Below are positions 3,640-23,178 of a stretch of DNA of 64,000 bases, one piece after another. Position 1 is the stretch's first letter. Every line of letters starts with the position of its first letter. Source of the stretch: Escherichia coli (GTDB lineage: Bacteria > Pseudomonadota > Gammaproteobacteria > Enterobacterales > Enterobacteriaceae); the NCBI RefSeq assembly GCF_002854065.1, contig NZ_CP024147.1. One strand, given 5' to 3'. A program made the translations under genes and the position numbers. A model generated the notes under the pieces. The model was not told where the DNA came from, did not search any database, and saw nothing but the letters and a program-made list of their open reading frames with translations.

Positions 3640-4027
3640 TATATTGACCCTTTCCTGCGGTCTGTGATGTAGGTCGATACACTGTTCTTTCAGGCGGCTG
3701 CAATAGCGCACAGAAAGGTGATGTTTATTTACTCTATGGATTTCGAGTTGCAGGAAGGCGGCAAGCGAGTGAACTCCAGGAGCTTACAACAGTAAGTAAC
3801 TGGGGTGAACGAACGTAGCCGCAGCATATGCAACTTGAAATACGACGAGTAAATCGTTTGCGTGTTGCCTGAGTTGTTGTACCACATTTTTTTCTAACAC
3901 GCCCATCAGAATTAAGGGCAGAATCGGCCTGTTAAAAACCGCTGAAATTGCTCATCATTATGCAGGTGAGTTTCGCGTGTTCACGTCGCGTCGACGATTT
4001 GACGCACAAAAAAGGTGAAAAGTAGTT

Positions 4028-5140
4028 ATGGTAAATGTTCGTCAGCCCAGGGATGTCGCACAAATTCTGCTTTCGGTGCTGTTTTTAGCCATCATGATTG
4101 TGGCATGTCTGTGGATTGTTCAACCCTTTATTCTCGGCTTTGCATGGGCCGGTACGGTGGTTATCGCCACCTGGCCGGTATTGTTACGTTTGCAAAAGAT
4201 CATGTTTGGCCGCCGCTCTCTCGCCGTTCTGGTTATGACGCTGTTATTAGTGATGGTGTTTATCATCCCTATTGCTTTGCTGGTTAACAGTATCGTCGAC
4301 GGCAGCGGCCCGCTTATTAAAGCCATTTCCAGCGGTGACATGACGTTACCCGATCTGGCGTGGCTTAATACCATTCCGGTGATTGGCGCGAAGCTGTATG
4401 CAGGCTGGCACAACTTGCTGGATATGGGGGGGACGGCGATCATGGCGAAAGTCCGCCCTTATATTGGTACCACCACCACCTGGTTCGTTGGGCAAGCGGC
4501 GCATATCGGGCGCTTTATGGTGCATTGTGCGCTGATGCTTCTCTTCAGTGCCCTGCTGTACTGGCGCGGTGAACAGGTGGCACAAGGCATTCGCCATTTT
4601 GCAACCCGTCTGGCAGGCGTTCGCGGAGATGCCGCCGTGCTGCTGGCGGCACAGGCTATCCGCGCGGTGGCGCTGGGTGTGGTGGTGACGGCGTTAGTAC
4701 AGGCAGTGCTTGGCGGTATCGGCCTCGCCGTATCCGGCGTACCTTATGCAACGTTGCTAACGGTGTTAATGATCCTCTCCTGCCTTGTCCAGCTTGGCCC
4801 GTTGCCGGTACTGATTCCGGCGATTATCTGGCTCTACTGGACCGGCGATACCACCTGGGGAACGGTATTGTTAGTGTGGAGCGGTGTGGTTGGCACGCTG
4901 GATAACGTCATCCGCCCAATGTTAATTCGCATGGGTGCCGATTTACCGCTGATCCTGATCCTCTCTGGCGTTATTGGTGGTTTGATTGCTTTCGGGATGA
5001 TCGGTCTGTTTATTGGTCCGGTTCTGTTAGCCGTTTCCTGGCGTCTGTTTGCCGCGTGGGTGGAAGAAGTCCCGCCGCCGACGGACCAACCGGAAGAAAT
5101 TCTCGAAGAACTTGGCGAAATCGAGAAACCGAATAAGTAA
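4028..5140 (+). CDS. ydiK: inner-membrane AI-2E/UPF0118 family transporter
   Basis: 370-aa hydrophobic ORF; synteny. Confidence 0.85.
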   Translation: MVNVRQPRDVAQILLSVLFLAIMIVACLWIVQPFILGFAWAGTVVIATWPVLLRLQKIMFGRRSLAVLVMTLLLVMVFIIPIALLVNSIVDGSGPLIKAISSGDMTLPDLAWLNTIPVIGAKLYAGWHNLLDMGGTAIMAKVRPYIGTTTTWFVGQAAHIGRFMVHCALMLLFSALLYWRGEQVAQGIRHFATRLAGVRGDAAVLLAAQAIRAVALGVVVTALVQAVLGGIGLAVSGVPYATLLTVLMILSCLVQLGPLPVLIPAIIWLYWTGDTTWGTVLLVWSGVVGTLDNVIRPMLIRMGADLPLILILSGVIGGLIAFGMIGLFIGPVLLAVSWRLFAAWVEEVPPPTDQPEEILEELGEIEKPNK

Positions 5141-5147
5141 TTTCTCA

Positions 5148-5173
5148 TCAGGCGGCTCTGCCGCCTGATTGTT
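5148..5173 (+). terminator. possible intrinsic terminator after ydiK (GC stem caggcggc/gccgcctg, weak T tract)
   Basis: Inverted repeat read directly 8 bp after ydiK stop. Confidence 0.4.
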
Positions 5174-5325
5174 AACCACCGCTAATTGATATTTGCTTGC
5201 TCTTCCCCATATTTTCCTGCTTACCGCCATTCAGCTGGTAGTACCTGTCGCAAATTCTTTACAGTTTTTAAACTAATGAGACGAATCTGATCGACGCAAA
5301 AAGTCCGTATGCCTACTATTAGCTC

Positions 5326-5430
5326 ACGGTTATAAATCAACATATTGATTTATAAGCATGGAAATCCCCTGAGTGAAACAACGAATTGCTGTGTGTAGTC
5401 TTTGCCCATCTCCCACGATGGGCTTTTTTT
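5326..5430 (+). ncRNA. rprA: RprA small regulatory RNA (Hfq-dependent activator of rpoS translation)
   Basis: Sequence ACGGTTATAAATCAACATATTGATTTATAAGCATGGAAATCCCCTGAGTGAAACAACGAATTGCTGTGTGTAGTCTTTGCCCATCTCCCACGATGGGCTTTTTTT matches RprA as I recall it, ending in hairpin plus T8 terminator. Confidence 0.85.
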
Positions 5431-5568
5431 TAACATTTTTCCGCTTCGCTACCTCGCCCCTCACTCTTTCCAATAATGTTGCACAAGATACTGTGACTCT
5501 CTTCAAGCCGTCAGCAGGCTGATAATGTTATTTATATTTTATTGTTTATTTCATGCAGCCATTACACG

Positions 5569-5925
5569 ATGAACGCTTATGAACTCCAGGCACTCCGCCA
5601 TATTTTTGCCATGACTATTGATGAATGCGCGACCTGGATTGCCCAGACCGGTGACAGTGAAAGCTGGCGTCAGTGGGAAAATGGCAAATGCGCCATTCCT
5701 GATCGTGTAGTCGAGCAACTGTTGGCTATGCGTCAGCAACGAAAAAAACATCTTCATGCCATTATAGAGAAAATAAATAACCGCATCGGCAACAACACCA
5801 TGCGTTTTTTCCCCGACTTAACCGCGTTTCAACGTGTCTACCCGGATGGCAATTTTATTGACTGGAAGATCTATCAATCGGTAGCCGCTGAATTATATGC
5901 ACACGATCTGGAGCGGCTTTGTTAA
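5569..5925 (+). CDS. ydiL: uncharacterised protein YdiL (118 aa)
   Basis: Track ORF 5542..5925 (TTG start) trimmed to ATG at 5569 (MNAYELQ...). Confidence 0.7.
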   Translation: MNAYELQALRHIFAMTIDECATWIAQTGDSESWRQWENGKCAIPDRVVEQLLAMRQQRKKHLHAIIEKINNRIGNNTMRFFPDLTAFQRVYPDGNFIDWKIYQSVAAELYAHDLERLC

Positions 5926-6024
5926 TTTCTCCACAAAAAGGAATTGTCGTTGTTACAACAATAATGAACGGATACTGACACAAAATCGCTACACTTTTTA
6001 AAGCACCTTTGCTAAGTAGAACCT

Positions 6025-7239
6025 ATGAAAAATCCCTATTACCCTACCGCACTTGGGTTGTATTTTAATTACCTGGTGCATGGTATGGGCGTCATTTTGA
6101 TGAGCCTGAATATGGCCTCGCTGGAGACACTTTGGCAGACTAATGCCGCGGGTGTCTCGATAGTTATCTCATCGCTGGGCATTGGTCGATTAAGTGTCTT
6201 GCTTTTTGCAGGATTATTATCCGATCGCTTTGGTCGCCGCCCTTTTATCATGCTCGGGATGTGCTGCTATATGGCCTTCTTTTTTGGCATCCTGCAGACC
6301 AATAACATCATTATTGCTTATGTTTTTGGCTTTCTGGCGGGAATGGCAAACAGTTTTCTCGATGCAGGCACTTATCCCAGTTTGATGGAAGCTTTTCCAC
6401 GCTCACCTGGGACAGCCAATATTTTAATTAAAGCATTTGTTTCCAGCGGACAATTTTTATTACCGCTAATCATTAGCCTGTTAGTGTGGGCTGAACTGTG
6501 GTTCGGTTGGTCCTTTATGATTGCTGCAGGCATTATGTTTATTAACGCTCTGTTTTTATACCGTTGTACGTTCCCACCCCATCCGGGTCGTCGCTTACCT
6601 GTCATAAAGAAAACCACCAGCTCTACGGAACATCGCTGTTCAATTATCGATTTAGCCAGTTATACCTTATATGGCTATATCTCAATGGCAACGTTTTATC
6701 TGGTTAGCCAGTGGCTGGCACAGTACGGACAATTTGTTGCAGGCATGTCATACACTATGTCGATCAAACTACTTAGTATCTACACCGTGGGTTCGCTGCT
6801 TTGTGTATTTATTACCGCTCCACTCATTCGTAATACCGTTCGCCCAACAACATTACTGATGCTGTACACCTTTATCTCATTTATTGCTCTGTTTACCGTC
6901 TGCCTGCATCCCACATTTTATGTGGTGATAATATTTGCTTTTGTCATTGGTTTTACCTCTGCTGGAGGTGTTGTGCAAATTGGCCTGACGTTAATGGCTG
7001 AACGTTTCCCCTACGCTAAAGGTAAAGCTACAGGTATCTATTACAGTGCGGGCAGTATTGCGACCTTTACTATTCCGTTGATTACGGCTCATCTGTCCCA
7101 AAGAAGTATTGCCGATATTATGTGGTTCGATACCGCCATCGCTGCCATCGGCTTTTTACTGGCACTGTTTATCGGCTTACGCAGCCGCAAAAAAACGCGG
7201 CATCACTCGCTAAAGGAAAATGTCGCTCCGGGTGGGTAA
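6025..7239 (+). CDS. ydiM: MFS transporter
   Basis: 404-aa polytopic membrane ORF; synteny next to ydiN/ydiB/aroD. Confidence 0.85.
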   Translation: MKNPYYPTALGLYFNYLVHGMGVILMSLNMASLETLWQTNAAGVSIVISSLGIGRLSVLLFAGLLSDRFGRRPFIMLGMCCYMAFFFGILQTNNIIIAYVFGFLAGMANSFLDAGTYPSLMEAFPRSPGTANILIKAFVSSGQFLLPLIISLLVWAELWFGWSFMIAAGIMFINALFLYRCTFPPHPGRRLPVIKKTTSSTEHRCSIIDLASYTLYGYISMATFYLVSQWLAQYGQFVAGMSYTMSIKLLSIYTVGSLLCVFITAPLIRNTVRPTTLLMLYTFISFIALFTVCLHPTFYVVIIFAFVIGFTSAGGVVQIGLTLMAERFPYAKGKATGIYYSAGSIATFTIPLITAHLSQRSIADIMWFDTAIAAIGFLLALFIGLRSRKKTRHHSLKENVAPGG

Positions 7240-7465
7240 TGCAATATTCTTTTCAGGTCATGCAAGATCTTACGGATAAATAACTCTTTCTGCGCTAACT
7301 AAGGAAAATCGCGATCAAAAACAAACTATGACATGCAATATTCCTGGAAACATAAACTTTATGCCATGTACCCAGGGAAAATCATCTTCAGTATAGTAAT
7401 TATGTAAACCGTCGGAGAACAATACGTACGGTAACGAAATAATCTTTCAGCAAGGAGCTGTGAAA

Positions 7466-8731
7466 ATGTCTCAAAATAAGGCTTTCAGCACGCCATTTAT
7501 CCTGGCTGTTCTTTGTATTTACTTCAGCTACTTCCTGCACGGCATTAGTGTTATTACGCTTGCCCAAAATATGTCATCTCTGGCGGAAAAGTTTTCCACT
7601 GACAACGCGGGCATTGCCTACTTAATTTCCGGTATCGGTTTGGGGCGATTGATCAGTATTTTATTCTTCGGTGTGATCTCCGATAAGTTTGGTCGTCGGG
7701 CGGTGATATTAATGGCAGTAATAATGTATCTGCTATTCTTCTTTGGTATTCCCGCTTGCCCGAATTTAACTCTCGCCTACGGTCTGGCAGTGTGCGTAGG
7801 TATCGCTAACTCAGCGCTGGATACGGGTGGCTACCCCGCGCTCATGGAATGCTTTCCGAAAGCCTCTGGTTCGGCGGTCATACTGGTTAAAGCGATGGTG
7901 TCATTCGGGCAAATGTTCTACCCAATGCTGGTGAGCTATATGTTGCTCAATAATATCTGGTACGGCTATGGGCTGATTATTCCGGGTATTCTGTTTGTAC
8001 TGATCACGCTGATGCTGTTGAAAAGCAAATTCCCCAGCCAGTTGGTGGACGCCAGCGTAGCTAATGAATTACCGCAAATGAACAGCAAACCGTTAGTCTG
8101 GCTGGAAGGTGTTTCATCGGTACTGTTCGGTGTAGTCGCATTCTCGACCTTTTATGTGATTGTGGTGTGGATGCCCAAATATGCGATGGCTTTTGCTGGT
8201 ATGTCAGAAGCTGAGGCATTAAAAACCATCTCTTATTACAGTATGGGCTCGTTGGTCTGTGTCTTTATTTTTGCCGCACTACTGAAAAAAATGGTCCGGC
8301 CCATCTGGGCTAATGTATTTAACTCTGCACTGGCAACAATAACAGCAGCCATTATCTACCTGTACCCTTCTCCACTGGTGTGTAATGCCGGCGCCTTTGT
8401 TATCGGTTTCTCAGCAGCTGGCGGCATTTTACAGCTCGGTGTTTCGGTCATGTCAGAGTTTTTCCCAAAAAGCAAAGCCAAAGTCACCAGTATTTATATG
8501 ATGATGGGTGGACTGGCTAACTTTGTTATTCCGCTGATTACCGGTTATCTGTCGAACATCGGCCTGCAATATATCATTGTTCTCGATTTTACTTTCGCGC
8601 TGCTGGCCCTGATTACCGCAATTATTGTTTTTATCCGCTATTACCGCGTTTTTATTATTCCTGAGAATGATGTGCGGTTTGGCGAGCGCAAATTTAGCAC
8701 CCGGTTAAACACAATTAAGCATAGAGGTTAA
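7466..8731 (+). CDS. ydiN: MFS transporter (paralog of ydiM)
   Basis: Track ORF 7460..8731 (GTG start); ATG at 7466 preferred; AGGAG RBS upstream. Confidence 0.85.
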
Positions 8732-8742
8732 AGGAGTTAATT

Positions 8743-9609
8743 ATGGATGTTACCGCAAAATACGAATTGATTGGGTTGATGGCTTATCCTATCCGCCACA
8801 GTTTATCGCCTGAAATGCAGAATAAAGCCTTAGAAAAAGCGGGATTGCCATTTACCTATATGGCCTTCGAAGTGGATAACGATAGCTTTCCCGGAGCAAT
8901 TGAAGGATTAAAAGCTCTAAAAATGCGCGGAACTGGTGTATCAATGCCGAACAAACAACTGGCGTGTGAATATGTTGATGAATTAACGCCAGCAGCCAAA
9001 CTGGTGGGTGCCATCAACACCATCGTTAATGATGATGGCTACCTGCGCGGCTATAACACCGACGGCACGGGCCATATTCGCGCCATTAAAGAGAGCGGTT
9101 TTGATATCAAAGGCAAAACAATGGTGCTGTTAGGGGCCGGAGGTGCCTCAACGGCGATTGGCGCGCAGGGGGCAATTGAAGGTTTAAAAGAAATTAAACT
9201 CTTTAACCGTCGGGATGAGTTCTTCGATAAAGCCCTCGCCTTCGCGCAGCGGGTTAACGAAAACACCGATTGTGTCGTCACGGTTACCGATCTCGCCGAT
9301 CAGCAAGCCTTTGCTGAAGCCCTGGCTTTCGCCGACATTTTAACCAATGGCACAAAAGTGGGTATGAACCCCCTTGAGAATGAATCATTGGTTAATGATA
9401 TCAGTCTGTTACATCCGGGACTGCTGGTCACTGAATGCGTGTATAACCCGCATATGACGAAGTTATTGCAGCAGGCGCAACAAGCTGGTTGCAAAACGAT
9501 TGATGGATACGGCATGTTGTTGTGGCAAGGGGCTGAACAGTTCACGTTATGGACTGGCAAAGATTTCCCTCTGGAATATGTTAAACAGGTCATGGGGTTC
9601 GGTGCCTGA
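8743..9609 (+). CDS. ydiB: quinate/shikimate 5-dehydrogenase, NAD(P)-dependent
   Basis: 288-aa ORF; shikimate dehydrogenase family sequence; adjacent to aroD. Confidence 0.9.
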
Positions 9610-9639
9610 CAGGCTGACCGCGTGCAGAAAGGGTAAAAA

Positions 9640-10398
9640 ATGAAAACCGTAACTGTAAAAGATCTCGTCATTGGTGCGGGCGCACCTAAAATCATCGTCT
9701 CGCTGATGGCGAAAGATATCGCCCGCGTGAAATCCGAAGCTCTCGCCTATCGTGAAGCGGACTTTGATATTCTGGAATGGCGTGTGGACCACTTTGCCGA
9801 CCTCTCCAATGTGGAGTCTGTCATGGCGGCAGCAAAAATTCTCCGTGAAACCATGCCAGAAAAACCGCTGCTGTTTACCTTCCGCAGTGCCAAAGAAGGC
9901 GGCGAGCAGGCGATTTCCACCGAGGCTTATATTGCACTCAATCGTGCAGCCATCGACAGCGGCCTGGTTGATATGATCGATCTGGAGTTATTTACCGGCG
10001 ATGATCAGGTTAAAGAAACCGTCGCCTACGCCCACGCGCATGATGTGAAAGTTGTCATGTCCAACCATGACTTCCATAAAACGCCGGAAGCCGAAGAAAT
10101 CATTGCCCGTCTGCGCAAAATGCAATCCTTCGACGCCGATATTCCTAAGATTGCGCTGATGCCGCAAAGTACCAGCGATGTGCTGACGTTGCTTGCCGCG
10201 ACCCTGGAGATGCAGGAGCAGTATGCCGATCGTCCAATCATCACGATGTCAATGGCAAAAACTGGCGTAATTTCTCGTCTGGCTGGTGAAGTATTTGGCT
10301 CGGCGGCAACTTTTGGTGCGGTAAAAAAAGCCTCTGCGCCAGGGCAAATCTCGGTAAATGATTTGCGCACAGTATTAACTATTTTACATCAGGCATAA
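9640..10398 (+). CDS. aroD: 3-dehydroquinate dehydratase type I
   Basis: 252-aa ORF recognised as AroD. Confidence 0.95.
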
Positions 10399-10543
10399 GC
10401 AATAATATTTCGGCGGGAATATCCTCCCCCGCCGAACTAAAAAAAATATATTCAACCGTATTTAATAAAAATATTTCGTGAGTCTCTGTGCGCTAATTAT
10501 CCATCTGGCGTAGGGAAAATCACACCTGAATCAGGAATTAACA

Positions 10544-12139
10544 ATGAAACCTGTAAAACCACCTCGTATTAATGGACGAGTGCCGGTCCTGTCGGCACAG
10601 GAAGCGGTGAATTATATTCCCGACGAAGCAACACTTTGTGTGTTAGGCGCTGGCGGCGGTATTCTGGAAGCCACCACGTTAATTACTGCTCTTGCTGATA
10701 AATATAAACAGACTCAAACGCCACGTAATTTATCGATTATTAGTCCAACAGGGCTTGGCGATCGCGCCGACCGTGGTATTAGTCCGCTGGCGCAAGAAGG
10801 TCTGGTTAAATGGGCATTATGCGGTCACTGGGGACAATCGCCGCGTATTTCTGATCTCGCAGAACAAAATAAAATTATTGCTTATAACTATCCACAAGGT
10901 GTACTTACACAAACCTTACGCGCCGCCGCAGCCCACCAGCCTGGTATTATTAGTGATATTGGCATCGGGACATTTGTCGATCCACGCCAGCAAGGCGGCA
11001 AACTGAATGAAGTCACTAAAGAAGACCTGATTAAACTGGTCGAGTTTGATAACAAAGAATATCTCTATTACAAAGCGATTGCGCCAGATATCGCCTTCAT
11101 TCGCGCTACCACCTGCGACAGCGAAGGCTACGCCACTTTTGAAGATGAGGTGATGTATCTCGACGCATTGGTTATTGCCCAGGCGGTGCACAATAACGGC
11201 GGTATTGTGATGATGCAGGTGCAGAAAATGGTTAAGAAAGCCACGCTGCATCCTAAATCTGTCCGTATTCCGGGTTATCTGGTGGATATTGTGGTGGTCG
11301 ATCCGGATCAAACCCAACTGTATGGCGGTGCACCGGTTAACCGCTTTATTTCTGGTGACTTCACCCTTGATGACAGTACCAAACTTAGCCTGCCCCTAAA
11401 CCAACGTAAATTAGTTGCGCGGCGCGCATTATTCGAAATGCGTAAAGGCGCGGTGGGGAATGTCGGCGTCGGTATTGCTGACGGCATTGGCCTGGTCGCT
11501 CGGGAAGAAGGTTGTGCTGATGACTTTATTCTGACGGTAGAAACAGGTCCGATTGGCGGAATTACTTCACAGGGTATCGCCTTTGGCGCGAACGTGAATA
11601 CCCGCGCCATTCTGGATATGACGTCCCAGTTTGATTTTTATCACGGTGGTGGTCTGGATGTTTGTTATTTGAGTTTTGCTGAAGTCGACCAGCACGGTAA
11701 CGTCGGTGTGCATAAATTCAATGGTAAAATCATGGGCACTGGTGGATTTATTGATATCAGTGCCACTTCGAAGAAAATCGTTTTCTGCGGCACATTAACT
11801 GCGGGCAGTTTAAACACAGAAATTACCGACGGCAAATTAAATATCGTCCAGGAAGGACGGGTGAAGAAATTTATTCGGGAACTACCGGAAATTACTTTCA
11901 GCGGAAAAATCGCTCTCGAGCGAGGGCTGGATGTTCGTTATATCACTGAGCGCGCAGTATTCACGCTGAAAGAAGACGGCCTGCATTTAATCGAAATCGC
12001 CCCTGGCGTCGATTTACAAAAAGATATTCTCGACAAAATGGATTTCACCCCAGTAATTTCGCCAGAACTCAAACTGATGGACGAAAGATTATTTATCGAT
12101 GCGGCGATGGGTTTTGTCCTGCCTGAAGCGGCTCATTAA
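10544..12139 (+). CDS. ydiF: family I CoA-transferase (acetate/short-chain acyl-CoA transferase, fused alpha/beta)
   Basis: 531-aa ORF; synteny. Confidence 0.9.
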   Translation: MKPVKPPRINGRVPVLSAQEAVNYIPDEATLCVLGAGGGILEATTLITALADKYKQTQTPRNLSIISPTGLGDRADRGISPLAQEGLVKWALCGHWGQSPRISDLAEQNKIIAYNYPQGVLTQTLRAAAAHQPGIISDIGIGTFVDPRQQGGKLNEVTKEDLIKLVEFDNKEYLYYKAIAPDIAFIRATTCDSEGYATFEDEVMYLDALVIAQAVHNNGGIVMMQVQKMVKKATLHPKSVRIPGYLVDIVVVDPDQTQLYGGAPVNRFISGDFTLDDSTKLSLPLNQRKLVARRALFEMRKGAVGNVGVGIADGIGLVAREEGCADDFILTVETGPIGGITSQGIAFGANVNTRAILDMTSQFDFYHGGGLDVCYLSFAEVDQHGNVGVHKFNGKIMGTGGFIDISATSKKIVFCGTLTAGSLNTEITDGKLNIVQEGRVKKFIRELPEITFSGKIALERGLDVRYITERAVFTLKEDGLHLIEIAPGVDLQKDILDKMDFTPVISPELKLMDERLFIDAAMGFVLPEAAH

Positions 12140-12152
12140 CAGGAGTATCACG

Positions 12153-13304
12153 ATGGATTTTTCTTTAACTGAAGAACAAGAACTGCTGCTGGCCAGTATT
12201 CGCGAACTGATTACGACTAACTTTCCGGAAGAGTATTTCCGCACCTGCGATCAAAACGGGACATACCCGCGTGAATTTATGCGGGCACTGGCGGATAACG
12301 GTATTTCCATGCTTGGCGTGCCGGAAGAATTTGGTGGTATCCCTGCGGATTACGTCACCCAGATGCTGGCGCTGATGGAAGTGTCAAAATGCGGTGCTCC
12401 GGCATTTTTGATCACCAACGGTCAATGTATTCACAGTATGCGCCGTTTCGGTTCTGCAGAGCAGCTACGTAAAACGGCAGAAAGCACCCTGGAAACCGGC
12501 GACCCCGCCTATGCCCTGGCGTTGACGGAACCAGGTGCTGGCTCAGATAACAACAGCGCCACTACCACTTACACGCGTAAAAACGGCAAGGTTTACATCA
12601 ACGGACAGAAAACTTTTATTACCGGTGCGAAAGAGTACCCGTATATGCTGGTGCTGGCGCGCGATCCTGAACCGAAAGATCCCAAAAAAGCCTTCACCCT
12701 GTGGTGGGTCGACTCCAGTAAGCCCGGCATTAAGATTAACCCGCTGCATAAAATCGGCTGGCATATGCTCAGCACCTGCGAAGTCTATCTCGACAACGTG
12801 GAAGTTGAAGAGAGCGACATGGTGGGCGAAGAAGGAATGGGTTTCCTCAATGTGATGTACAACTTTGAGATGGAGCGCCTGATCAACGCCGCGCGCAGCA
12901 CCGGCTTTGCCGAGTGTGCCTTTGAAGATGCCGCCCGCTATGCCAACCAACGTATCGCTTTTGGTAAACCCATTGGTCATAACCAGATGATCCAGGAAAA
13001 ACTGGCGCTGATGGCGATTAAGATCGACAACATGCGCAACATGGTGCTGAAAGTAGCATGGCAAGCCGATCAGCATCAGTCACTGCGCACCAGCGCGGCG
13101 CTGGCAAAACTGTATTGCGCACGTACCGCAATGGAAGTCATTGATGATGCGATTCAAATCATGGGCGGTCTGGGCTATACCGATGAAGCGCGCGTCTCCC
13201 GCTTCTGGCGTGATGTCCGTTGTGAACGTATTGGCGGCGGTACAGACGAAATTATGATTTACGTAGCAGGTCGGCAAATCCTGAAAGACTATCAGAACAA
13301 ATAA
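12153..13304 (+). CDS. ydiO: acyl-CoA dehydrogenase family protein (383 aa)
   Basis: Track ORF 12099..13304 trimmed to ATG at 12153 (MDFSLTEEQ...) with AGGAG RBS. Confidence 0.9.
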   Translation: MDFSLTEEQELLLASIRELITTNFPEEYFRTCDQNGTYPREFMRALADNGISMLGVPEEFGGIPADYVTQMLALMEVSKCGAPAFLITNGQCIHSMRRFGSAEQLRKTAESTLETGDPAYALALTEPGAGSDNNSATTTYTRKNGKVYINGQKTFITGAKEYPYMLVLARDPEPKDPKKAFTLWWVDSSKPGIKINPLHKIGWHMLSTCEVYLDNVEVEESDMVGEEGMGFLNVMYNFEMERLINAARSTGFAECAFEDAARYANQRIAFGKPIGHNQMIQEKLALMAIKIDNMRNMVLKVAWQADQHQSLRTSAALAKLYCARTAMEVIDDAIQIMGGLGYTDEARVSRFWRDVRCERIGGGTDEIMIYVAGRQILKDYQNK

Positions 13305-13346
13305 TCTGCAGGCGGCGCAGCTTCTTAACAAACTGCGCCGCCAGAT

Positions 13347-14258
13347 TTACCCGGCAAGACTTACCGGTTGAGGAAATTCAGATAAGATTTCTTGTTCCGC
13401 AAAACAGTTTTTAAATTGCCTGCGGTAATCGCTGGGCGAACAACCGACATGGCGCAAAAACAGTTTGGCAAAGTGATCGACATTTTCATAACCCACACGC
13501 CAGGAGATCTCTGCCTGTGATAATTCAGTATTAGTGAGTAACCATTTCGCTTCCGTCATACGCCGTTGAATAACATAGTTAATAGGGGAAATACGATACT
13601 CTTTGGTAAATTCATGGCAAATATAACTGACGCTGGCACGAAATTTTTTCGATAACTGTTCTAAAGTGATTTTTTCGCGATAATTATTATTTAGATAGAA
13701 AAGAATATCTTTTATCAGAACATCTTTTTTAATATACCCCTGCTCCGAACGATAAGCATTTTTAAAGTTTTCGTAGTAAAGAATTGCTAATGTATAGGCA
13801 AATGCATCCCATAACGAAGATGTTTGGCTATTTTTACTTTGCGGCAAAATCACACTTAGCTCATTAAATAAGGTTTTAATGACTTCTTTTCCCTGCCCCG
13901 CGGCAATTACCGGACAAGAATGCGGTTGCAGTAGATGATTTTCCTCAGCCCCCTGAAACTGAAAGCCGTACAGCGCACAGGTACACGTCGTTGCCGGATC
14001 GTTAACGTCAGAGGCCACCGCATGCAGCCTGCCGCGTTCTATCACCACTATATCATCTGCATGCGCGACATATAACGAAGAATCGATGGTAAACCTTGCC
14101 ACCCCTTTCTTGACGTAAATCAGCTCGGTTTCATTGTCATGAACGTGATGTCCAGACTCCCATTTTGGATCATCGCTAAATGCAAAACGTGAAAGCCGTG
14201 GCGTTTTACCAGCGACAAACAGCGTTTCACTGGCATTATCAAAACAGCGTTGATACAT
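13347..14258 (-). CDS. ydiP: AraC/XylS-family transcriptional regulator
   Basis: 303-aa ORF with C-terminal AraC-type HTH; AT-rich. Confidence 0.85.
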   Translation of the reverse strand: MYQRCFDNASETLFVAGKTPRLSRFAFSDDPKWESGHHVHDNETELIYVKKGVARFTIDSSLYVAHADDIVVIERGRLHAVASDVNDPATTCTCALYGFQFQGAEENHLLQPHSCPVIAAGQGKEVIKTLFNELSVILPQSKNSQTSSLWDAFAYTLAILYYENFKNAYRSEQGYIKKDVLIKDILFYLNNNYREKITLEQLSKKFRASVSYICHEFTKEYRISPINYVIQRRMTEAKWLLTNTELSQAEISWRVGYENVDHFAKLFLRHVGCSPSDYRRQFKNCFAEQEILSEFPQPVSLAG

Positions 14259-14573
14259 GACAACCTCCCTATTCCATGAGCAAGCAAAAACAATATATGC
14301 CGGATAAAATACGGCGTGTATTGCGGTTATACAACCGCGTTTAGCGAGAGCTAAACAAGATTATTTACACTGAATGCAAGATTGTACGGTCATGGAATAA
14401 CTATATTGCCGCAAATTGCACTTTTGTTTTAGCGATCGCATTTTTTTTGCAAGATTGTTGGCAAGGAAAACAGCTTGCTCCGTCGAAAACCCCGCACCGC
14501 TATCGCACACTATTTTCAGGCCATTTTTACCTTCCATCGGAGATGGTTCCGTATGCGACTCACAGGAGAAATC

Positions 14574-15338
14574 ATGAAAATAATAACCTGCTTTAAGCTG
14601 GTGCCTGAAGAACAGGACATTGTTGTCACTCCAGAATACACCCTGAATTTCGACAATGCCGACGCCAAAATCAGCCAGTTCGATCTCAATGCCATTGAAG
14701 CTGCAAGCCAGCTTGCAACAGATGACGATGAGATAGCCGCGCTGACCGTTGGCGGCTCATTGTTGCAGAACTCGAAAGTGCGCAAAGACGTGCTATCCCG
14801 CGGGCCGCACAGCCTGTATATGGTGCAGGATGCACAACTTGAGCATGCACTGCCTCTCGATACCGCAAAAGCGCTGGCGGCAGCAGTTGAAAAGATCGGC
14901 TTCGATTTACTGATCTTTGGTGAAGGTTCCGGCGACCTTTATGCCCAGCAGGTTGGCTTGCTGGTCGGAGAAATTCTGCAACTTCCGGTGATTAATGCAG
15001 TGAGTGCTATTCAGCGTCAGGGCAATACACTGGTGATTGAACGCACGCTTGAAGATGACGTTGAAGTTATTGAACTCTCTGTTCCAGCCGTGCTCTGCGT
15101 CACCTCCGATATTAACGTGCCACGCATTCCTTCGATGAAAGCCATTCTCGGCGCGGGTAAAAAACCGGTAAATCAGTGGCAGGCAAGTGATATTGGCTGG
15201 AGCCAGAGCGCACCACTTGCTGAACTGACCGGCATTCGCGTACCGCCGCAAACAGAACGTAAGCACATCATTCTCGATAACGATTCGCCGGAGGCCATTG
15301 CCGAGCTGGCGGAACATCTGAAGAAAGCCCTGAACTGA
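14574..15338 (+). CDS. ydiQ: electron transfer flavoprotein beta subunit (FixA-like)
   Basis: Track ORF 14475..15338 trimmed to ATG 14574 (MKIITCFKLVPE...) with AGGAG RBS; 254 aa. Confidence 0.9.
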   Translation: MKIITCFKLVPEEQDIVVTPEYTLNFDNADAKISQFDLNAIEAASQLATDDDEIAALTVGGSLLQNSKVRKDVLSRGPHSLYMVQDAQLEHALPLDTAKALAAAVEKIGFDLLIFGEGSGDLYAQQVGLLVGEILQLPVINAVSAIQRQGNTLVIERTLEDDVEVIELSVPAVLCVTSDINVPRIPSMKAILGAGKKPVNQWQASDIGWSQSAPLAELTGIRVPPQTERKHIILDNDSPEAIAELAEHLKKALN

Positions 15339-15357
15339 AGCCTACGGAGAAGAAACG

Positions 15358-16296
15358 ATGAGTCAATTAAACAGCGTCTGGGTCTTTAGCGATAATCCTG
15401 AACGTTATGCTGAACTGTTTGGCGGCGCTCAGCAATGGGGCCAACAGGTGTATGCCATTGTACAAAATACCGACCAGGTGCAGACAGTTATGCCTTATGG
15501 TCCAAAATGTATTTATGTTCTTGAGCAAAACGACGCGCTGCAACGCACTGAAAATTACGCCGAAAGCATTGCTGCTCTGCTGAAAGATAAACACCCCGCT
15601 ATGTTGCTACTGGCCGCGACGAAACGTGGTAAAGCTCCGGCAGCACGGTTAAGTGTGCAACTGAATGCGGCGCTGGTGAACGATGCCACGGCGGTGGATA
15701 TTGTCGATGGTCACATTTGCGCCGAACACCGGATGTATGGCGGGTTAGCGTTCGCTCAGGAAAAGATCAACAGCTCGCTAGCGATCATTACCCTTGCACC
15801 CGGTGTTCAGGAACCGTGCACCAGTGATACCTCTCATCAGTGCCCGACAGAAACGGTACCTTATGTTGCTCCGCGTCATGAAATTCTCTGTCGCGAGCGC
15901 CGTGCGAAAGCGGCAAGCAGCGTGGACCTGAGCAAAGCAAAACGTGTGGTTGGCGTCGGTCGTGGTCTGGCAGCGCAGGATGACCTGAAAATGGTCCACG
16001 AACTGGCGGCGGTGCTGAATGCTGAAGTCGGCTGTTCACGTCCAATTGCCGAAGGCGAGAACTGGATGGAGCGTGAACGTTATATCGGTGTCTCCGGCGT
16101 GTTGCTGAAATCCGATCTCTACCTGACGCTGGGGATCTCCGGGCAGATCCAACATATGGTTGGCGGCAACGGCGCAAAAGTGATTGTCGCCATCAATAAA
16201 GATAAAAATGCGCCAATCTTCAACTATGCCGACTACGGTCTGGTGGGCGATATCTACAAAGTCGTCCCTACCCTGATTAGCCAGTTGAGCCGCTAA
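15358..16296 (+). CDS. ydiR: electron transfer flavoprotein alpha subunit (FixB-like)
   Basis: 312-aa ORF. Confidence 0.9.
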   Translation: MSQLNSVWVFSDNPERYAELFGGAQQWGQQVYAIVQNTDQVQTVMPYGPKCIYVLEQNDALQRTENYAESIAALLKDKHPAMLLLAATKRGKAPAARLSVQLNAALVNDATAVDIVDGHICAEHRMYGGLAFAQEKINSSLAIITLAPGVQEPCTSDTSHQCPTETVPYVAPRHEILCRERRAKAASSVDLSKAKRVVGVGRGLAAQDDLKMVHELAAVLNAEVGCSRPIAEGENWMERERYIGVSGVLLKSDLYLTLGISGQIQHMVGGNGAKVIVAINKDKNAPIFNYADYGLVGDIYKVVPTLISQLSR

Positions 16297-16351
16297 TTCC
16301 CCTTTCAACCACATCTCCCGCTGTAAACGCAGCGGGAAGGGAGCATAACGC

Positions 16352-17641
16352 ATGTCGGATGACAAATTTGATGCCATTGTGGTCGGTGCGGGCGTTGCTG
16401 GTAGCGTTGCCGCACTGGTCATGGCACGAGCCGGGCTGGATGTCCTGGTGATAGAACGCGGCGACAGTGCCGGATGTAAAAACATGACCGGCGGGCGTCT
16501 TTATGCCCACACACTTGAAGAGATTATTCCAGGCTTTGCAGCATCAGCGCCGGTAGAACGCAAGGTCACACGCGAGAAAATCTCCTTCTTAACCGAAGAG
16601 AGCGCCGTTACCCTCGATTTTCACCGCGAGCAACCAGATGTTCCGCAACACGCATCTTATACCGTATTGCGTAATCGTCTGGACCCGTGGTTGATGGAAC
16701 ATGCCGAGCAGGCGGGCGCACAGTTTATCCCGGGAGTTCGCGTCGATGCGCTGGTTCGTGAAGGAAACAAGGTCACTGGCGTCCAGGCTGGGGATGATAT
16801 TCTCGAAGCGAATGTGGTGATTCTGGCTGATGGCGTTAACTCGATGCTTGGCCGTTCGCTGGGAATGGTTCCCGCTTCCGATCCGCATCATTACGCTGTT
16901 GGTGTTAAAGAGGTTATTGGCCTCACACCAGAACAGATCAACGATCGCTTTAATATTACGGGCGAGGAAGGTGCCGCCTGGCTGTTTGCCGGTTCCCCTT
17001 CTGACGGCCTGATGGGTGGCGGATTCCTCTATACCAATAAGGATTCCATATCGTTGGGGCTGGTTTGTGGATTGGGTGATATCGCCCATGCGCAAAAAAG
17101 CGTGCCGCAAATGCTGGAAGATTTTAAACAACACCCCGCCATTCGCCCGCTGATTAGCGGCGGCAAGTTGCTTGAATATTCCGCGCATATGGTGCCGGAA
17201 GGCGGTCTGGCAATGGTGCCGCAACTGGTTAACGAGGGCGTGATGATCGTTGGTGACGCCGCAGGCTTCTGCCTGAATTTGGGTTTTACGGTCCGCGGCA
17301 TGGATTTAGCCATTGCATCGGCTCAGGCTGCCGCCACAACGGTGATCGCCGCCAAAGAACGCGCGGATTTCTCCGCCAGCAGTCTTGCGCAATACAAACG
17401 TGAGCTGGAACAAAGTTGTGTTATGCGCGATATGCAGCATTTTCGCAAGATCCCGACGCTGATGGAAAATCCGCGCCTGTTTAGTCAGTATCCGCGCATG
17501 GTCGCCGACATCATGAACGATATGTTCACCATTGACGGCAAACCAAACCAGCCGGTACGCAAAATGATCATGGGACACGCGAAGAAAATTGGGCTGATCA
17601 ACTTGCTGAAAGATGGCATTAAGGGAGCAACCGCGCTATGA
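16352..17641 (+). CDS. ydiS: FAD-dependent oxidoreductase, ETF-quinone oxidoreductase-like (FixC-like)
   Basis: 429-aa ORF with N-terminal GxGxxG dinucleotide motif (VVGAGVAGS). Confidence 0.9.
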   Translation: MSDDKFDAIVVGAGVAGSVAALVMARAGLDVLVIERGDSAGCKNMTGGRLYAHTLEEIIPGFAASAPVERKVTREKISFLTEESAVTLDFHREQPDVPQHASYTVLRNRLDPWLMEHAEQAGAQFIPGVRVDALVREGNKVTGVQAGDDILEANVVILADGVNSMLGRSLGMVPASDPHHYAVGVKEVIGLTPEQINDRFNITGEEGAAWLFAGSPSDGLMGGGFLYTNKDSISLGLVCGLGDIAHAQKSVPQMLEDFKQHPAIRPLISGGKLLEYSAHMVPEGGLAMVPQLVNEGVMIVGDAAGFCLNLGFTVRGMDLAIASAQAAATTVIAAKERADFSASSLAQYKRELEQSCVMRDMQHFRKIPTLMENPRLFSQYPRMVADIMNDMFTIDGKPNQPVRKMIMGHAKKIGLINLLKDGIKGATAL

Positions 17642-17931
17642 GCCAGAACGCTACGGTTAACGTCGACATCAAATTAGGCGTCAATAAATTCCATGTTGAT
17701 GAGGGCCACCCGCATATCATTTTGGCGGCAAATCCCGATATCAATGAATTCCGTAAATTAATGAAAGCCTGCCCTGCCGGACTTTATAAGCAGGATGATG
17801 CCGGCAACATTCATTTTGATTCCGCCGGTTGTCTGGAGTGCGGCACCTGTCGGGTGCTGTGCGGTAACACTATTCTCGAACAGTGGCAATATCCCGCAGG
17901 CACCTTCGGTATTGATTTTCGCTACGGCTAA
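17638..17931 (+). CDS. ydiT: ferredoxin-like protein (FixX-like)
   Basis: 97-aa ORF with Cys-rich C-terminus; 4-bp overlap with ydiS. Confidence 0.85.
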   Translation: MSQNATVNVDIKLGVNKFHVDEGHPHIILAANPDINEFRKLMKACPAGLYKQDDAGNIHFDSAGCLECGTCRVLCGNTILEQWQYPAGTFGIDFRYG

Positions 17932-17933
17932 TC

Positions 17934-19262
17934 ATGCATCCCACAGGCCCGCATCTCGGGCCTGATGTTCTGTTTCGAGAGTCCAAAATGAAAGTGACAT
18001 TAACGTTTAACGAACAACGTCGTGCGGCGTATCGTCAGCAAGGGCTATGGGGCGATGCTTCGCTGGCCGATTACTGGCAGCAGACCGCTCGTGCGATGCC
18101 AGACAAAATTGCCGTGGTCGATAATCATGGAGCATCGTACACCTATAGCGCGCTCGATCACGCCGCGAGCTGTCTGGCAAACTGGATGTTAGCGAAGGGT
18201 ATTGAATCAGGCGATCGCATCGCATTTCAACTGCCAGGCTGGTGTGAATTTACCGTTATCTATCTTGCCTGCCTGAAAATCGGTGCGGTTTCCGTACCGC
18301 TGTTGCCTTCCTGGCGGGAAGCAGAACTGGTATGGGTGCTTAATAAGTGTCAGGCAAAAATGTTCTTTGCACCGACGTTGTTTAAACAAACGCGTCCGGT
18401 AGATTTAATCCTGCCGCTGCAAAATCAGCTTCCACAACTACAACAAATTGTCGGCGTGGACAAACTGGCTCCCGCCACCTCTTCCCTCTCATTAAGTCAG
18501 ATTATCGCCGACAATACCCCACTGACCACGGCGATAACGACCCACGGCGATGAATTAGCCGCGGTGCTGTTTACCTCCGGAACCGAGGGCCTGCCAAAGG
18601 GCGTGATGCTTACGCATAACAATATTCTCGCCAGTGAGCGGGCTTATTGCGCGCGGCTGAATCTGACCTGGCAGGATGTCTTTATGATGCCTGCGCCACT
18701 CGGCCACGCAACGGGCTTTCTGCATGGCGTAACAGCACCATTTTTGATTGGTGCTCGCAGCGTGTTGTTAGATATTTTCACTCCTGATGCGTGTCTCGCG
18801 CTGCTTGAGCAGCAGCGTTGCACCTGTATGCTCGGCGCAACGCCGTTTGTCTATGATCTTTTGAATTTACTAGAGAAACAACCCGCAGACCTTTCAGCGC
18901 TGCGCTTCTTTCTTTGCGGCGGTACCACAATCCCCAAAAAAGTGGCGCGTGAATGCCAGCAGCGCGGCATTAAATTATTAAGTGTTTATGGTTCCACAGA
19001 AAGTTCGCCGCATGCGGTGGTGAATCTCGATGATCCTTTGTCGCGCTTTATGCACACCGATGGTTACGCTGCCGCAGGTGTAGAGATTAAAGTGGTCGAT
19101 GACGCACGCAAGACCTTACCGCCAGGTTGCGAAGGTGAAGAAGCCTCGCGTGGCCCCAATGTGTTTATGGGGTATTTTGATGAACCTGAATTAACCGCCC
19201 GAGCCCTGGATGAAGAAGGCTGGTATTACAGCGGCGATCTCTGCCGTATGGATGAAGCTGGC
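17934..19262 (+). pseudogene. fadK: 5' fragment of short-chain acyl-CoA synthetase fadK/ydiD, truncated by IS1 insertion (reading frame runs into IS1 and stops at 19287..19289)
   Basis: Track ORF 17934..19289; AMP-binding motif TSGTEGLPKG present; alternative start at 17988 (MKVTLTF). Confidence 0.85.
19254..19262. repeat. 9-bp target-site duplication (gaagctggc), left copy
   Basis: Identical 9-mer immediately flanks both IS1 ends. Confidence 0.85.
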
Positions 19263-19317
19263 GGTGATGCTGCCAACTTACTGATTTAGTGTATGATGGT
19301 GTTTTTGAGGTGCTCCA

Positions 19318-19593
19318 GTGGCTTCTGTTTCTATCAGCTGTCCCTCCTGTTCAGCTACTGACGGGGTGGTGCGTAACGGCAAAAGCACTGCCGGACATCA
19401 GCGCTATCTCTGCTCTCACTGCCGTAAAACATGGCAACTGCAGTTCACTTACACCGCTTCTCAACCCGGTACGCACCAGAAAATCATTGATATGGCCATG
19501 AATGGCGTTGGATGCCGGGCAACCGCCCGCATTATGGGCGTTGGCCTCAACACGATTTTCCGCCATTTAAAAAACTCAGGCCGCAGTCGGTAA
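19318..19593 (+). CDS. insA: IS1 InsA (transposition inhibitor / DNA-binding N-terminal part of transposase)
   Basis: 91-aa [40 protein letters not shown]...; GTG start. Confidence 0.9.
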
Positions 19594-20015
19594 CCTCGCG
19601 CATACAGCCGGGCAGTGACGTCATCGTCTGCGCGGAAATGGACGAACAGTGGGGATACGTCGGGGCTAAATCGCGCCAGCGCTGGCTGTTTTACGCGTAT
19701 GACAGGCTCCGGAAGACGGTTGTTGCGCACGTATTCGGTGAACGCACTATGGCGACGCTGGGGCGTCTTATGAGCCTGCTGTCACCCTTTGACGTGGTGA
19801 TATGGATGACGGATGGCTGGCCGCTGTATGAATCCCGCCTGAAGGGAAAGCTGCACGTAATCAGCAAGCGATATACGCAGCGAATTGAGCGGCATAACCT
19901 GAATCTGAGGCAGCACCTGGCACGGCTGGGACGGAAGTCGCTGTCGTTCTCAAAATCGGTGGAGCTGCATGACAAAGTCATCGGGCATTATCTGAACATA
20001 AAACACTATCAATAA
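19512..20015 (+). CDS. insB: IS1 InsB reading frame (expressed as InsAB' transposase by -1 frameshift)
   Basis: 167-aa ORF in the -1 frame relative to insA. Confidence 0.85.
19569..19575 (+). other. A6C slippery motif for programmed -1 ribosomal frameshift of IS1 transposase
   Basis: ttaaaaaactc read directly in the insA/insB overlap. Confidence 0.7.
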
Positions 20016-20030
20016 GTTGGAGTCATTACC

Positions 20031-20039
20031 GAAGCTGGC
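20031..20039. repeat. 9-bp target-site duplication (gaagctggc), right copy
   Basis: Identical to 19254..19262. Confidence 0.85.
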
Positions 20040-20414
20040 TATATAAAAATAACCGGGCGCAAGAAAGATATTATTGTCCGCGGCGGCGAAAATATTAGCA
20101 GCCGTGAAGTGGAAGATATTTTATTACAGCATCCTAAAATTCACGATGCTTGTGTGGTTGCAATGCCCGATGAACGCTTAGGTGAACGTTCATGCGCTTA
20201 TGTCGTGCTGAAAGCACCGCATCATTCATTATCGCTGGAAGATGTAGTGGCTTTTTTTAGCCGTAAACGGGTCGCAAAATATAAATACCCTGAACATATC
20301 GTGGTAATCGAAAAACTACCGCGCACTGCCTCAGGTAAAATACAAAAGTTTTTGTTAAGAAAAGATATTATGCGGCGATTAACGCAGGATGTCTGTGAAG
20401 AGATTGAATAAGTT
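20040..20414 (+). pseudogene. fadK: 3' fragment of fadK/ydiD (C-terminal domain of acyl-CoA synthetase)
   Basis: In frame with the 5' fragment once IS1 and one TSD copy are removed; track ORF 20109..20411 carries the C-terminal part. Confidence 0.85.
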
Positions 20415-20436
20415 TCATCTTCGGGGGTCACATAAC

Positions 20437-20475
20437 CCCGGCGACAAAACGCCGCCGGGTATTTATTTTATTTCT
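20437..20475 (+). terminator. intrinsic terminator between convergent fadK and ppsA (stem cccggcg/cgccggg followed by T-rich tract)
   Basis: Inverted repeat plus tatttattttatttc read directly. Confidence 0.5.
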
Positions 20476-22846: not shown

Positions 22847-22932
22847 CGAACAATCCTTTTGTGATAAATGAACGGTTTGAGAAACACATTTCTGCGCATT
22901 TATCTTTGCATATTTAACCGGATGAAAAAAAC

Positions 22933-22948
22933 GGTGAATCGTTCAAGC
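22933..22948. promoter_or_regulatory. candidate Cra (FruR) operator upstream of ppsA (ggtgaatcgttcaagc)
   Basis: Imperfect palindrome TGAATCGTTCA in ppsA upstream region; Cra activation of ppsA is established. Confidence 0.4.
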
Positions 22949-23178
22949 AAATATATTTTTTTACTTTTTAAGACTGATCCCAGCGTTGCGCAAACCTGCT
23001 CTCTTCGACAATTTCCACATAAACCATCGGTATAAACGAAACCATAAAAATGAAATGCTGTTTTCATAAAAAATAAAATTGAAGGTTCATTTTATAAACC
23101 AGACATAACGTTCTACGCTTCTGTGCGTTTTTAATTTATGCTTTCATAGAATTATGTCTGCATCACGGGAAGAACAAA

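Follow-up and report, generated by a model that had tools for sequence, protein, structure and literature searches.

Quinate/shikimate dehydrogenase and dehydroquinase are encoded together in the qui, qsu and qut loci, and the same holds for ydiB and aroD of Escherichia coli, which belong to the gene group ydiL-ydiM-ydiN-ydiB-aroD at positions 5569–10398 of a 64,000-nt stretch of contig NZ_CP024147.1 (this whole stretch is referred to below as the window). Catabolic quinate loci mostly use a type II dehydroquinase, while AroD is a type I enzyme. Carnitine is converted by the caiTABCDE and fixABCX system to γ-butyrobetaine via crotonobetaine; Sutterella wadsworthensis derives growth from reduction of the shikimate enoate to hydroshikimate (bioRxiv 10.1101/2022.12.26.521950), and lactic acid bacteria are reported to convert quinate via shikimate to dihydroshikimate, using it as a hydrogen acceptor (PMC13204703). 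Comparison with other genomes suggests that the five E. coli genes are the front half of a larger unit, ydi(L-M)-ydiN-ydiB-aroD-ydiF-ydiO-ydiP-ydiQRST-fadK (approximately 5569–20411), and we consider it about an even call whether this whole cluster works in a Cai/Fix-like manner, with quinate or shikimate being reduced to dihydroshikimate as an anaerobic electron sink.

A linkage between the YdiM/YdiN transporters and the shikimate pathway is already published, in 2006, 2009 and 2023. In the 2006 transcriptome study, as recounted in PMC4585142, ydiN, ydiB and aroD were co-induced and YdiN was proposed to carry shikimate or by-products. Hu et al. (2009; PMC2672614) predicted a YdiN/YdiL/YdiM-aro module from operon rearrangements and described shikimate-related phenotypes (auxotrophy) for ydiN and ydiB deletions, with shikimate metabolism being perturbed; the phylogenomic study of Khalfaoui-Hassani et al. 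(2023; PMC10588857) found that approximately 75% of YdiM/YdiN homologs adjoin shikimate-pathway genes. The association by itself would thus restate published work and matter little; what is added here is a model of the entire ydi cluster that is specific and can be tested. A literature search, which did not extend to most subscription journals, found no paper that links ydiO or ydiF to shikimate or dihydroshikimate.

Conserved partners of the transporter, ydiB and aroD

Eighty loci were recovered from a species-level genome collection with a profile of 13 YdiM/YdiN homologs and were searched with the proteins of the window. The first-pass annotation had tied the transporter family to quinate/shikimate enzymes, and this is borne out: homologs of both YdiB and AroD lie beside the gene of the major facilitator superfamily (MFS) in essentially all adequately flanked loci among the 80. 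Enterobacterales except Klebsiella have the order ydiL-ydiM-(LysR)-ydiN-ydiB-aroD-ydiF-ydiO-ydiP-ydiQRST; a compact ydiB-MFS-aroD cassette is found in Klebsiella, Paenibacillus, Clostridium, Megasphaera, and Lactobacillaceae.

All open reading frames (ORFs) of the 42 loci outside the Escherichia-type arrangement were then clustered without prior labels, and the recurrent families were named by Pfam. Next to the transporter (41 loci), YdiB (41), AroD (33), and a LysR regulator (35), there recurred an Fe-S flavoenzyme of about 670 residues with old yellow enzyme (OYE) and Pyr_redox_2 domains, which is of the enoate-reductase/FadH/BaiCD type and usually encoded directly 5′ of ydiB (22 loci), a flavin reductase of about 765 residues with FMN_bind, FAD_binding_2 and FMN_red domains (14 loci), and, in 10 loci, the flavin transferase ApbE. 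One or more C=C reductase systems, that is, OYE/FadH-type, flavin reductase plus ApbE, or acyl-CoA dehydrogenase (ACAD) plus electron transfer flavoprotein (ETF), are present in 38 of the 42; the other four are short or truncated contigs, or Telmatospirillum (L040). A dehydroshikimate dehydratase is not among the conserved neighbors in these 42 loci, nor is one annotated in the same region of E. coli, from sufA to thrS (RefSeq; the rest of the E. coli genome was not scanned). The likeness to classical quinate/shikimate catabolic loci that had been claimed for the cluster therefore does not hold, as no such dehydratase is annotated in it or around it.

The ACAD/ETF genes accompany ydiB and aroD in changing order. 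Two Sutterella species have fadK-ydiT-S-R-Q inverted and divergent from ydiN-ydiB-aroD-ydiF-ydiO, and the S. wadsworthensis locus (L039) carries a whole ydi-like cluster. Through distant YdiN homologs (46–48% identity) metagenomic contigs were reached as well, one of which (L082) encodes on one strand, with gaps of 11–140 bp, an MFS transporter, a CoA-transferase, an ACAD, ETF-β, ETF-α, shikimate dehydrogenase, dehydroquinase I, and FixC; ydiB and aroD are likewise interleaved with genes of the reductase operon in L084 and L085. Homologs of ydiF adjoin YdiN-clade transporters in L082, L085, and Sutterella. The housekeeping rpsF-rpsR region of L085 is 69% identical to that of E. coli at the DNA level, which makes the organism a distant relative of E. 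coli. Sporolactobacillus (L070) has two ACADs (28–29% identity to YdiO), FixABCX-like genes, YdiB, AroD, and two MFS genes, together with an AMP-binding ligase and a CoA-transferase that is not of the YdiF family. That the genes stay together despite reordering, the gene set of L070, and the operator described below indicate that the adjacency in the ydi cluster is functional. In L085 the genes behind aroD (19618–21127) encode an oxidoreductase like ApbA/ketopantoate reductase and a dehydratase of the MaoC type, which hints at further steps past dihydroshikimate in some lineages.

In shikimate and 3-dehydroshikimate the C1=C2 bond is in conjugation with the carboxylate, and in the latter compound with the ketone as well; three unrelated reductase types on one front end point to reduction of this bond as the common last step. 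In the pathway proposed for E. coli, quinate, shikimate or 3-dehydroshikimate would be imported by YdiN, and quinate (via 3-dehydroquinate) and shikimate would be converted by YdiB and AroD to the enone/enoate pair 3-dehydroshikimate/shikimate. The CoA thioester of the acid would be primed by FadK and recycled by YdiF, its C1=C2 bond would be reduced by YdiO with electrons from YdiQRST, and dihydroshikimate would be released. The reduction phenotypes of S. wadsworthensis and lactic acid bacteria are in keeping with such a pathway, as are the co-induction of ydiN, ydiB and aroD and the shikimate phenotypes of ydiN and ydiB deletions in E. coli. Imported quinate or shikimate could also enter aromatic amino-acid synthesis through the same genes, because aroD encodes the only biosynthetic dehydroquinase of E. 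coli. The wider proposition, that a YdiP-controlled ydi cluster allows E. coli and related bacteria of gut and plants to use quinate and shikimate as electron acceptors in respiration or fermentation, with dihydroshikimate being released, and is one of three convergent reductase solutions, has in our estimate slightly less than an even chance of being correct.

A shared operator and the regulators of the cluster

The promoters of ydiN and ydiQ share two types of conserved sites. In the operator region 5′ of ydiN (7240–7375, plus strand) TGCAA[G/T]AT occurs at 7240, at 7261 (a spacing of 21 bp), and at 7334; the proximal site runs to approximately 7375, with a conserved −10-like TATAGT behind it (7392–7397). 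In the operator region 5′ of ydiQ (14375–14490, plus strand) TGCAAGAT is found at 14375 and 14448, with the flanking pattern being as at ydiN. The distal site type reads ATTrTT-N8-TGCAAkATa-TAcGG; the proximal one reads TGCAAkAT-N-yTGGyAA-N-AAAAC-...ATGT, ends about 16 nt before the conserved TATAGT, and resembles half-sites of XylS/AraC. TGCAAKATT has six matches in the window, four of which lie in the ydiM/ydiN and ydiP/ydiQ spacers; for the 315-bp ydiP/ydiQ spacer about 0.011 matches are expected from the background rate, and the probability of at least two is approximately 6e-5.

The blocks of the ydiN spacer are conserved across Escherichia, Citrobacter, and Kosakonia, and in Citrobacter, Kosakonia, Yersinia, Brenneria, Symbiopectobacterium, and Prodigiosinella each of the two promoters has sites of both types. 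S. wadsworthensis has them as well, as do L082 and L084, in the latter two beside YdiP-like genes. Orthologs of YdiP are encoded next to the motif in Sutterella seckii (L036), L082, and L084; within the flank of the S. wadsworthensis locus none was found. YdiP, an AraC-family regulator encoded at 13347–14258 on the minus strand, is a candidate for the protein that binds the shared operator, and likely the common activator of the two promoters. Two other lines were dropped: a sigma-54 reading of the proximal operator (TGGCA...TTGC) has a GG-GC spacing approximately 5 nt too long, and the density of the motif in loci with and without YdiP (2.8 versus 1.2 per 10 kb) is confounded by base composition.

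The two transporters of E. coli appear to stem from modules of different type. In a neighbor-joining tree of 76 family members, YdiM groups with the cassette transporters of Klebsiella and Firmicutes (58–61% identity to that of Klebsiella), and YdiN groups with transporters of Sutterella, Telmatospirillum, L082, L084, and L085; the YdiN clade is confined to clusters with CoA-transferase, ACAD and ETF genes, while the clade of YdiM elsewhere belongs to ydiB-MFS-aroD cassettes under QuiR-like LysR control. The description of ydiM and ydiN as a matched pair has to be given up, as the two are anciently diverged and their clades travel with different module types.

A 300-residue LysR protein is encoded between ydiM and ydiN in Yersinia, Dickeya, Brenneria, Symbiopectobacterium, and Prodigiosinella (for example at 8124–9026, minus strand, in L024, with equivalents in L021–L030, L037, and L055). 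Its effector domain matches PDB 5TED, the shikimate-bound QuiR of Listeria, with E = 8.5e-66. QuiR homologs occur in 47 of the 80 loci, also beside the cassette in Klebsiella and Firmicutes. The loci of Escherichia, Citrobacter, and Kosakonia are without the LysR gene and have a spacer of 226–450 bp (the set of loci contained no Salmonella), and neither a QuiR-like gene nor a remnant of one was found in the Escherichia spacer or in the whole window; the E. coli lineage has lost the QuiR-like regulator at the ydi locus. The present "pair" would consequently consist of a YdiM-type transporter (plus ydiL), minus QuiR, set beside a YdiN-type, YdiP-associated module, and ydiL-ydiM is a separate unit in which YdiM may serve as second importer or as product exporter.

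YdiL, encoded at 5569–5925 (plus strand), is a helix-turn-helix protein of the Aca2/YdiL family, which matches PF08965 over its full length (205 bits, residues 1–118 of 118) and, in the PDB, 1s4k (YdiL itself) and structures of Aca2 (1e-14). Among the loci examined ydiL and ydiM are either both present or both absent, with ydiL never being found without ydiM. Aca2 proteins of phages repress anti-CRISPR operons; here, a chromosomal gene of this family lies just downstream of rprA.

Gene order in the window and the YdiM/YdiN family

Genes were placed by the ORF list and by RefSeq-annotated E. coli chromosomes (100% match). Positions 5000–11000 of the window are ordinary E. coli chromosome, 100% identical to strain CUWW06, and the ydiL–aroD region is found in 5425 of 5426 complete E. 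coli genomes. The limits 5569 and 10398 given for the five genes in the first-pass annotation coincide exactly with the start of ydiL and the stop of aroD, and all five are on the plus strand. After ydiL follow ydiM (6025–7239, 404 residues; MFS_1, 135 bits), ydiN (7466–8731, 421 residues; MFS_1), ydiB (8743–9609; NAD(P)-dependent quinate/shikimate dehydrogenase), and aroD (9640–10398; type I 3-dehydroquinate dehydratase). The identities assigned to the two enzymes stand, as both reach curated NCBIfam models (NF009390 with 665 bits versus a cutoff of 349, and TIGR01093 with 293 bits versus a cutoff of 139). That the transporters lie directly upstream of ydiB-aroD is correct for ydiN, which is contiguous with ydiB, but not for ydiM, which is set apart by a 226-bp spacer with conserved regulatory blocks; the ydiN-ydiB gap measures 11 bp and the ydiB-aroD gap 30 bp. 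One protein of 668 residues (P0007; one E. coli assembly, one member sequence) is a YdiN-YdiB fusion with MFS_1 and shikimate dehydrogenase domains, most likely because a frameshift or a sequencing error bridged the 11-bp gap.

Upstream, the locus is bounded by the small RNA gene rprA (5326–5433, plus strand; Rfam RF00034, 118.5 bits versus a gathering score of 70, and RefSeq annotation), which is outside the system, is the sole Rfam match around the locus, and has a terminator-like site at 5404–5423. A consensus promoter and terminator scan of 5100–10700 yielded fewer promoter-like sites than shuffled sequence and, within the cluster, no terminator that was convincing; transcription units are thus not defined by it. 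The ydiM-ydiN spacer folds at chance level (z = 0.24), which makes a riboswitch or attenuator unlikely. Behind aroD, a stable hairpin at 10409–10436 (plus strand; −16.6 kcal/mol, z = −3.7) is followed by an A-run on the plus strand, with a clean U-tract on neither strand; it is not a terminator of the canonical kind, so read-through into ydiF is possible. It may be a partial terminator, an RNA stabilizer, or something else.

The next gene, ydiF (10544–12139, plus strand; Pfam CoA_trans), encodes a family I CoA-transferase with fused subunits, and ydiO (12153–13304, plus strand) an acyl-CoA dehydrogenase/reductase with its own equivalog model (NF008997, 787 bits). Against the model of the crotonobetainyl-CoA reductase CaiA, YdiO scores 452 bits, which is below the cutoff of 540; judged by these models, CaiA is probably its closest characterized relative, though YdiO is not CaiA itself. 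Beyond ydiP, the genes ydiQ, ydiR, ydiS, and ydiT (14574–17931, plus strand) encode a FixABCX-like set of ETF, ETF-quinone oxidoreductase, and ferredoxin, with YdiQ reaching 326 bits versus the FixA cutoff of 219 and YdiS 639 bits versus the FixC cutoff of 610; next to their genes lie ydiR and ydiT. The acyl-CoA synthetase (AMP-binding) gene fadK (17988–20411, plus strand) is interrupted by the insertion sequence IS1 at approximately 19263–20030, with the left inverted repeat at 19263–19285 and ORFs of the size of insA (19318–19593) and insB (19512–20015). The same configuration is annotated by RefSeq in strain LST200A and shared by approximately 10 of 5426 complete E. coli genomes; in CUWW06 the same IS1 borders a deletion spanning ydiO to most of fadK. 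Immediately behind the ydi cluster, ppsA, ppsR, and aroH (tryptophan-sensitive 3-deoxy-D-arabino-heptulosonate 7-phosphate (DAHP) synthase) are located at 20468–25215, so that phosphoenolpyruvate supply and the first step of the shikimate pathway are encoded less than 15 kb from ydiB and aroD.

YdiM and YdiN are MFS paralogs, as had been stated: they share 37% identity over 385 residues (E = 1e-86), and their only Pfam match is MFS_1, with 135 and 115 bits, respectively, versus a cutoff of 33.4. They are filed by TCDB under TC 2.A.1.15 (PMC10588857), yet both stay below the cutoffs of all curated MFS subfamily models. Against TIGR00895, the model of the aromatic acid:H+ symporters (AAHS), they score 39.1 and 41.7 bits versus a cutoff of 418.55, in partial matches only; against TIGR00883, the metabolite:H+ symporter (MHS) family of ShiA, YdiN scores 21.4 bits versus a cutoff of 443, and for YdiM the ProP model alone is matched, with 23 bits. 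Neither matches Sugar_tr (PF00083, the sugar porters of QutD/Qa-y) at E ≤ 0.01. HMMER, run exhaustively on 1.84 billion representative proteins, returned only 661 related clusters, which marks YdiM/YdiN as a small, distinct subfamily.

The AlphaFold2 model of YdiN (predicted local distance difference test, pLDDT, 93.2; predicted TM-score, pTM, 0.90) has 12 long transmembrane (TM) helices. Foldseek aligned it to MdfA, DgoT, and GlpT with TM-scores of 0.7–0.8, all of them generic MFS neighbors with 12–18% identity, so the model is silent on the substrate; a PDB sequence search with YdiN returned no relative at E < 0.01. Residues 69–78 fit MFS motif A (G-x-x-x-D-[RK]-x-G-R-[RK], between TM2 and TM3), the residue at position 73 and R77 of which are kept in at least 96% of 75 homologs. 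Other conserved polar residues are D119 (TM4), K142 (TM5), N115, and Q323, which are compatible with a polar anionic substrate, and YdiN is predicted to import quinate, shikimate, or dehydroshikimate. The substrates are rightly called unassigned, as the literature found reports no direct assay of hydroaromatic transport; partial deletion data exist. A ydiN deletion raises the shikimate titer 1.3-fold, much like deletion of the importer gene shiA (PMC8788726), and a ydiM deletion results in slower uptake of 64Cu and loss of bo3 oxidase activity (PMC10588857). A 2026 paper on the copper importer CuiT was ruled out as evidence on YdiM; it concerns YnfM.

Competing explanations and the closest known systems

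Several points weigh against a reductive role of the whole cluster. YdiF, YdiO, YdiQRST, and FadK are tied to hydroaromatic acids by comparative genomics, and YdiP is tied to its operator by co-occurrence, in both cases the sole basis. Anaerobic fatty-acid oxidation, which Campbell et al. reportedly proposed in 2003 for ydiF, ydiO, ydiQRST, and fadK, is to our knowledge the only function proposed for their products. A 2019 survey lists limited functional information for ydiO, and for a ydiM deletion no measured uptake defect other than that of copper is on record. The IS1 in fadK and the deletion in CUWW06 imply that the cluster is dispensable. YdiO-like ACADs with 63–74% identity exist without ydiB and aroD, in Desulfovibrio (L087) within a Cai-like cluster and in L088 as a lone gene; the cassette is thus generic and its substrate not fixed by family membership. 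The synteny within Enterobacterales could be inherited, Sutterella probably gained the block horizontally, and truly independent cases are few (L070, L082, L084, and L085, with L073 and L040 being partial). In S. wadsworthensis a gene for a 477-residue FAD_binding_2 flavin reductase (1850–3283 in L039) adjoins the ydi-like cluster, and its product could be the shikimate reductase instead. Finally, some loci of Megasphaera and Secundilactobacillus carry biosynthetic aro genes, and part of the transporter-ydiB-aroD association may reflect biosynthesis.

An initial assignment of the whole YdiO subfamily to shikimate was dropped after a reciprocal test, in which homologs with 63–74% identity were not always found beside ydiB and aroD. 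Extra copies of DAHP synthase and dehydroquinate synthase genes flank the ydiB-MFS-aroD-ApbE-flavin reductase cassette in Secundilactobacillus collinoides (L054, at 3999–6090 and 15398–17564; also in L053); there, internal dehydroquinate might feed the reductive branch, or the cassette might double as biosynthetic operon.

The genes might serve salvage only, which would mean that YdiN (perhaps also YdiM) imports shikimate or quinate, that YdiB and AroD turn these into dehydroshikimate for aromatic amino acids, and that ydiF-fadK handle short- or medium-chain fatty acids and are adjacent by inheritance. aroD is indeed biosynthetic, YdiB by its family assignment interconverts quinate, shikimate, and the dehydro forms, in some loci aroK, aroB, and genes for DAHP synthase and chorismate synthase adjoin the trio, and the 2023 phylogenomic paper (PMC10588857) concluded along these lines. 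The auxotrophy described for the ydiN and ydiB deletions (PMC2672614) fits as well, although it may be caused by polarity on aroD. Salvage leaves unexplained, however, why reductase systems of three unrelated types stand in 38 of the 42 non-Escherichia-type loci, why L082, L084, and L085 have ydiB and aroD placed among ACAD and ETF genes, and why the ydiN and ydiQ promoters have an operator in common; we regard it as rather unlikely. The original proposal of Johansson and Liden, according to which YdiN exports by-products (dehydroshikimate, dehydroquinate, quinate) formed by reversed YdiB and AroD reactions, is quite improbable. It agrees with the co-upregulation of ydiN, ydiB, and aroD in a carbon-limited shikimate overproducer, where by-products appear (reviewed in PMC4585142), but such a strain is an artificial situation, loss of ydiN raises extracellular shikimate as does loss of the known importer shiA, and the conserved QuiR-type shikimate sensor and the reductases beside the family fit the use of an external substrate.

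For YdiM, it has to be considered that the shikimate neighborhood might be irrelevant to its substrate and that it imports copper for the maturation of the bo3 quinol oxidase, or exports solvents. While the deletion phenotype speaks for copper, the effect could be indirect; the same paper (PMC10588857) has approximately 75% of the homologs beside shikimate genes, and transporters of the YdiM clade are encoded between ydiB and aroD in Klebsiella, Paenibacillus, Megasphaera, and Lactobacillaceae, which is why such a role is given little probability here. A classical oxidative quinate/shikimate locus, as known from Acinetobacter (qui), Corynebacterium (qsu), and Aspergillus (qut), would likewise cluster genes for a transporter, quinate/shikimate dehydrogenase, and dehydroquinase; in E. 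coli, however, genes for dehydroshikimate dehydratase or protocatechuate cleavage are not annotated in or near the cluster, the dehydroquinase is the type I biosynthetic enzyme of the cell, the transporters are outside the families of ShiA, PcaK, and QutD, and the partners conserved across genomes are reductases rather than ring-cleavage enzymes, all of which renders this explanation extremely unlikely.

If reduction of quinate and shikimate by the ydi cluster proves true, a function would be given to about ten E. coli genes that have long been orphans (ydiM, ydiN, ydiF, ydiO, ydiP, and ydiQRST for decades). ydiO and ydiQRST are already used in engineered reverse β-oxidation, with their native substrate not being established. 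Quinate and chlorogenic acid are plentiful in the diet; the cluster would supply a genetic basis for the reduction of quinate that was observed long ago in lactic acid bacteria and gut flora, and candidate genes for a process recently shown to be a respiration in gut Sutterella and Eggerthella. Strains for shikimate production are repeatedly engineered in ydiB and ydiN, and knowing that these two belong to a reductive sink that has a regulator and operator of its own would guide such work.

As to transport, the permeases ShiA (MHS), PcaK (AAHS), and QutD/Qa-y share the MFS fold, and presumably proton symport, with YdiM and YdiN, but the latter are far below the cutoffs of these families and form a separate subfamily. 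The qui1 and qui2 loci of Listeria resemble the loci studied here in encoding quinate/shikimate dehydrogenase and dehydroquinase under a QuiR-type regulator; they end with a dehydroshikimate dehydratase yielding protocatechuate, whereas the loci studied here carry C=C reductases instead and the E. coli locus is without its QuiR-like gene. With the flavin-reductase-dependent shikimate respiration of Eggerthella lenta and S. wadsworthensis (Little et al.), the ydi cluster would have the net reaction in common, and the use of the substrate as electron acceptor. Lactobacillaceae loci encode the same class of reductase, plus ApbE; the E. coli cluster has no such flavin reductase and would use a cytoplasmic CoA-thioester route. 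Such a route is closest to that of the Cai and Fix proteins, with which the ydi cluster shares an ACAD related to the reductase CaiA, electron supply of the FixABCX type, a CoA-transferase and an AMP-forming ligase, a dehydratase that makes a double bond, a dedicated transporter, and a dedicated regulator. The two differ in that the CoA-transferase YdiF is of family I and CaiB of family III, that AroD is predicted to act on the free acid and CaiD acts on the CoA ester, that ydi adds the dehydrogenase YdiB and has an MFS transporter in place of CaiT, an antiporter of the betaine/carnitine/choline transporter (BCCT) family, and that the predicted substrate of ydi is a hydroaromatic acid instead of carnitine.

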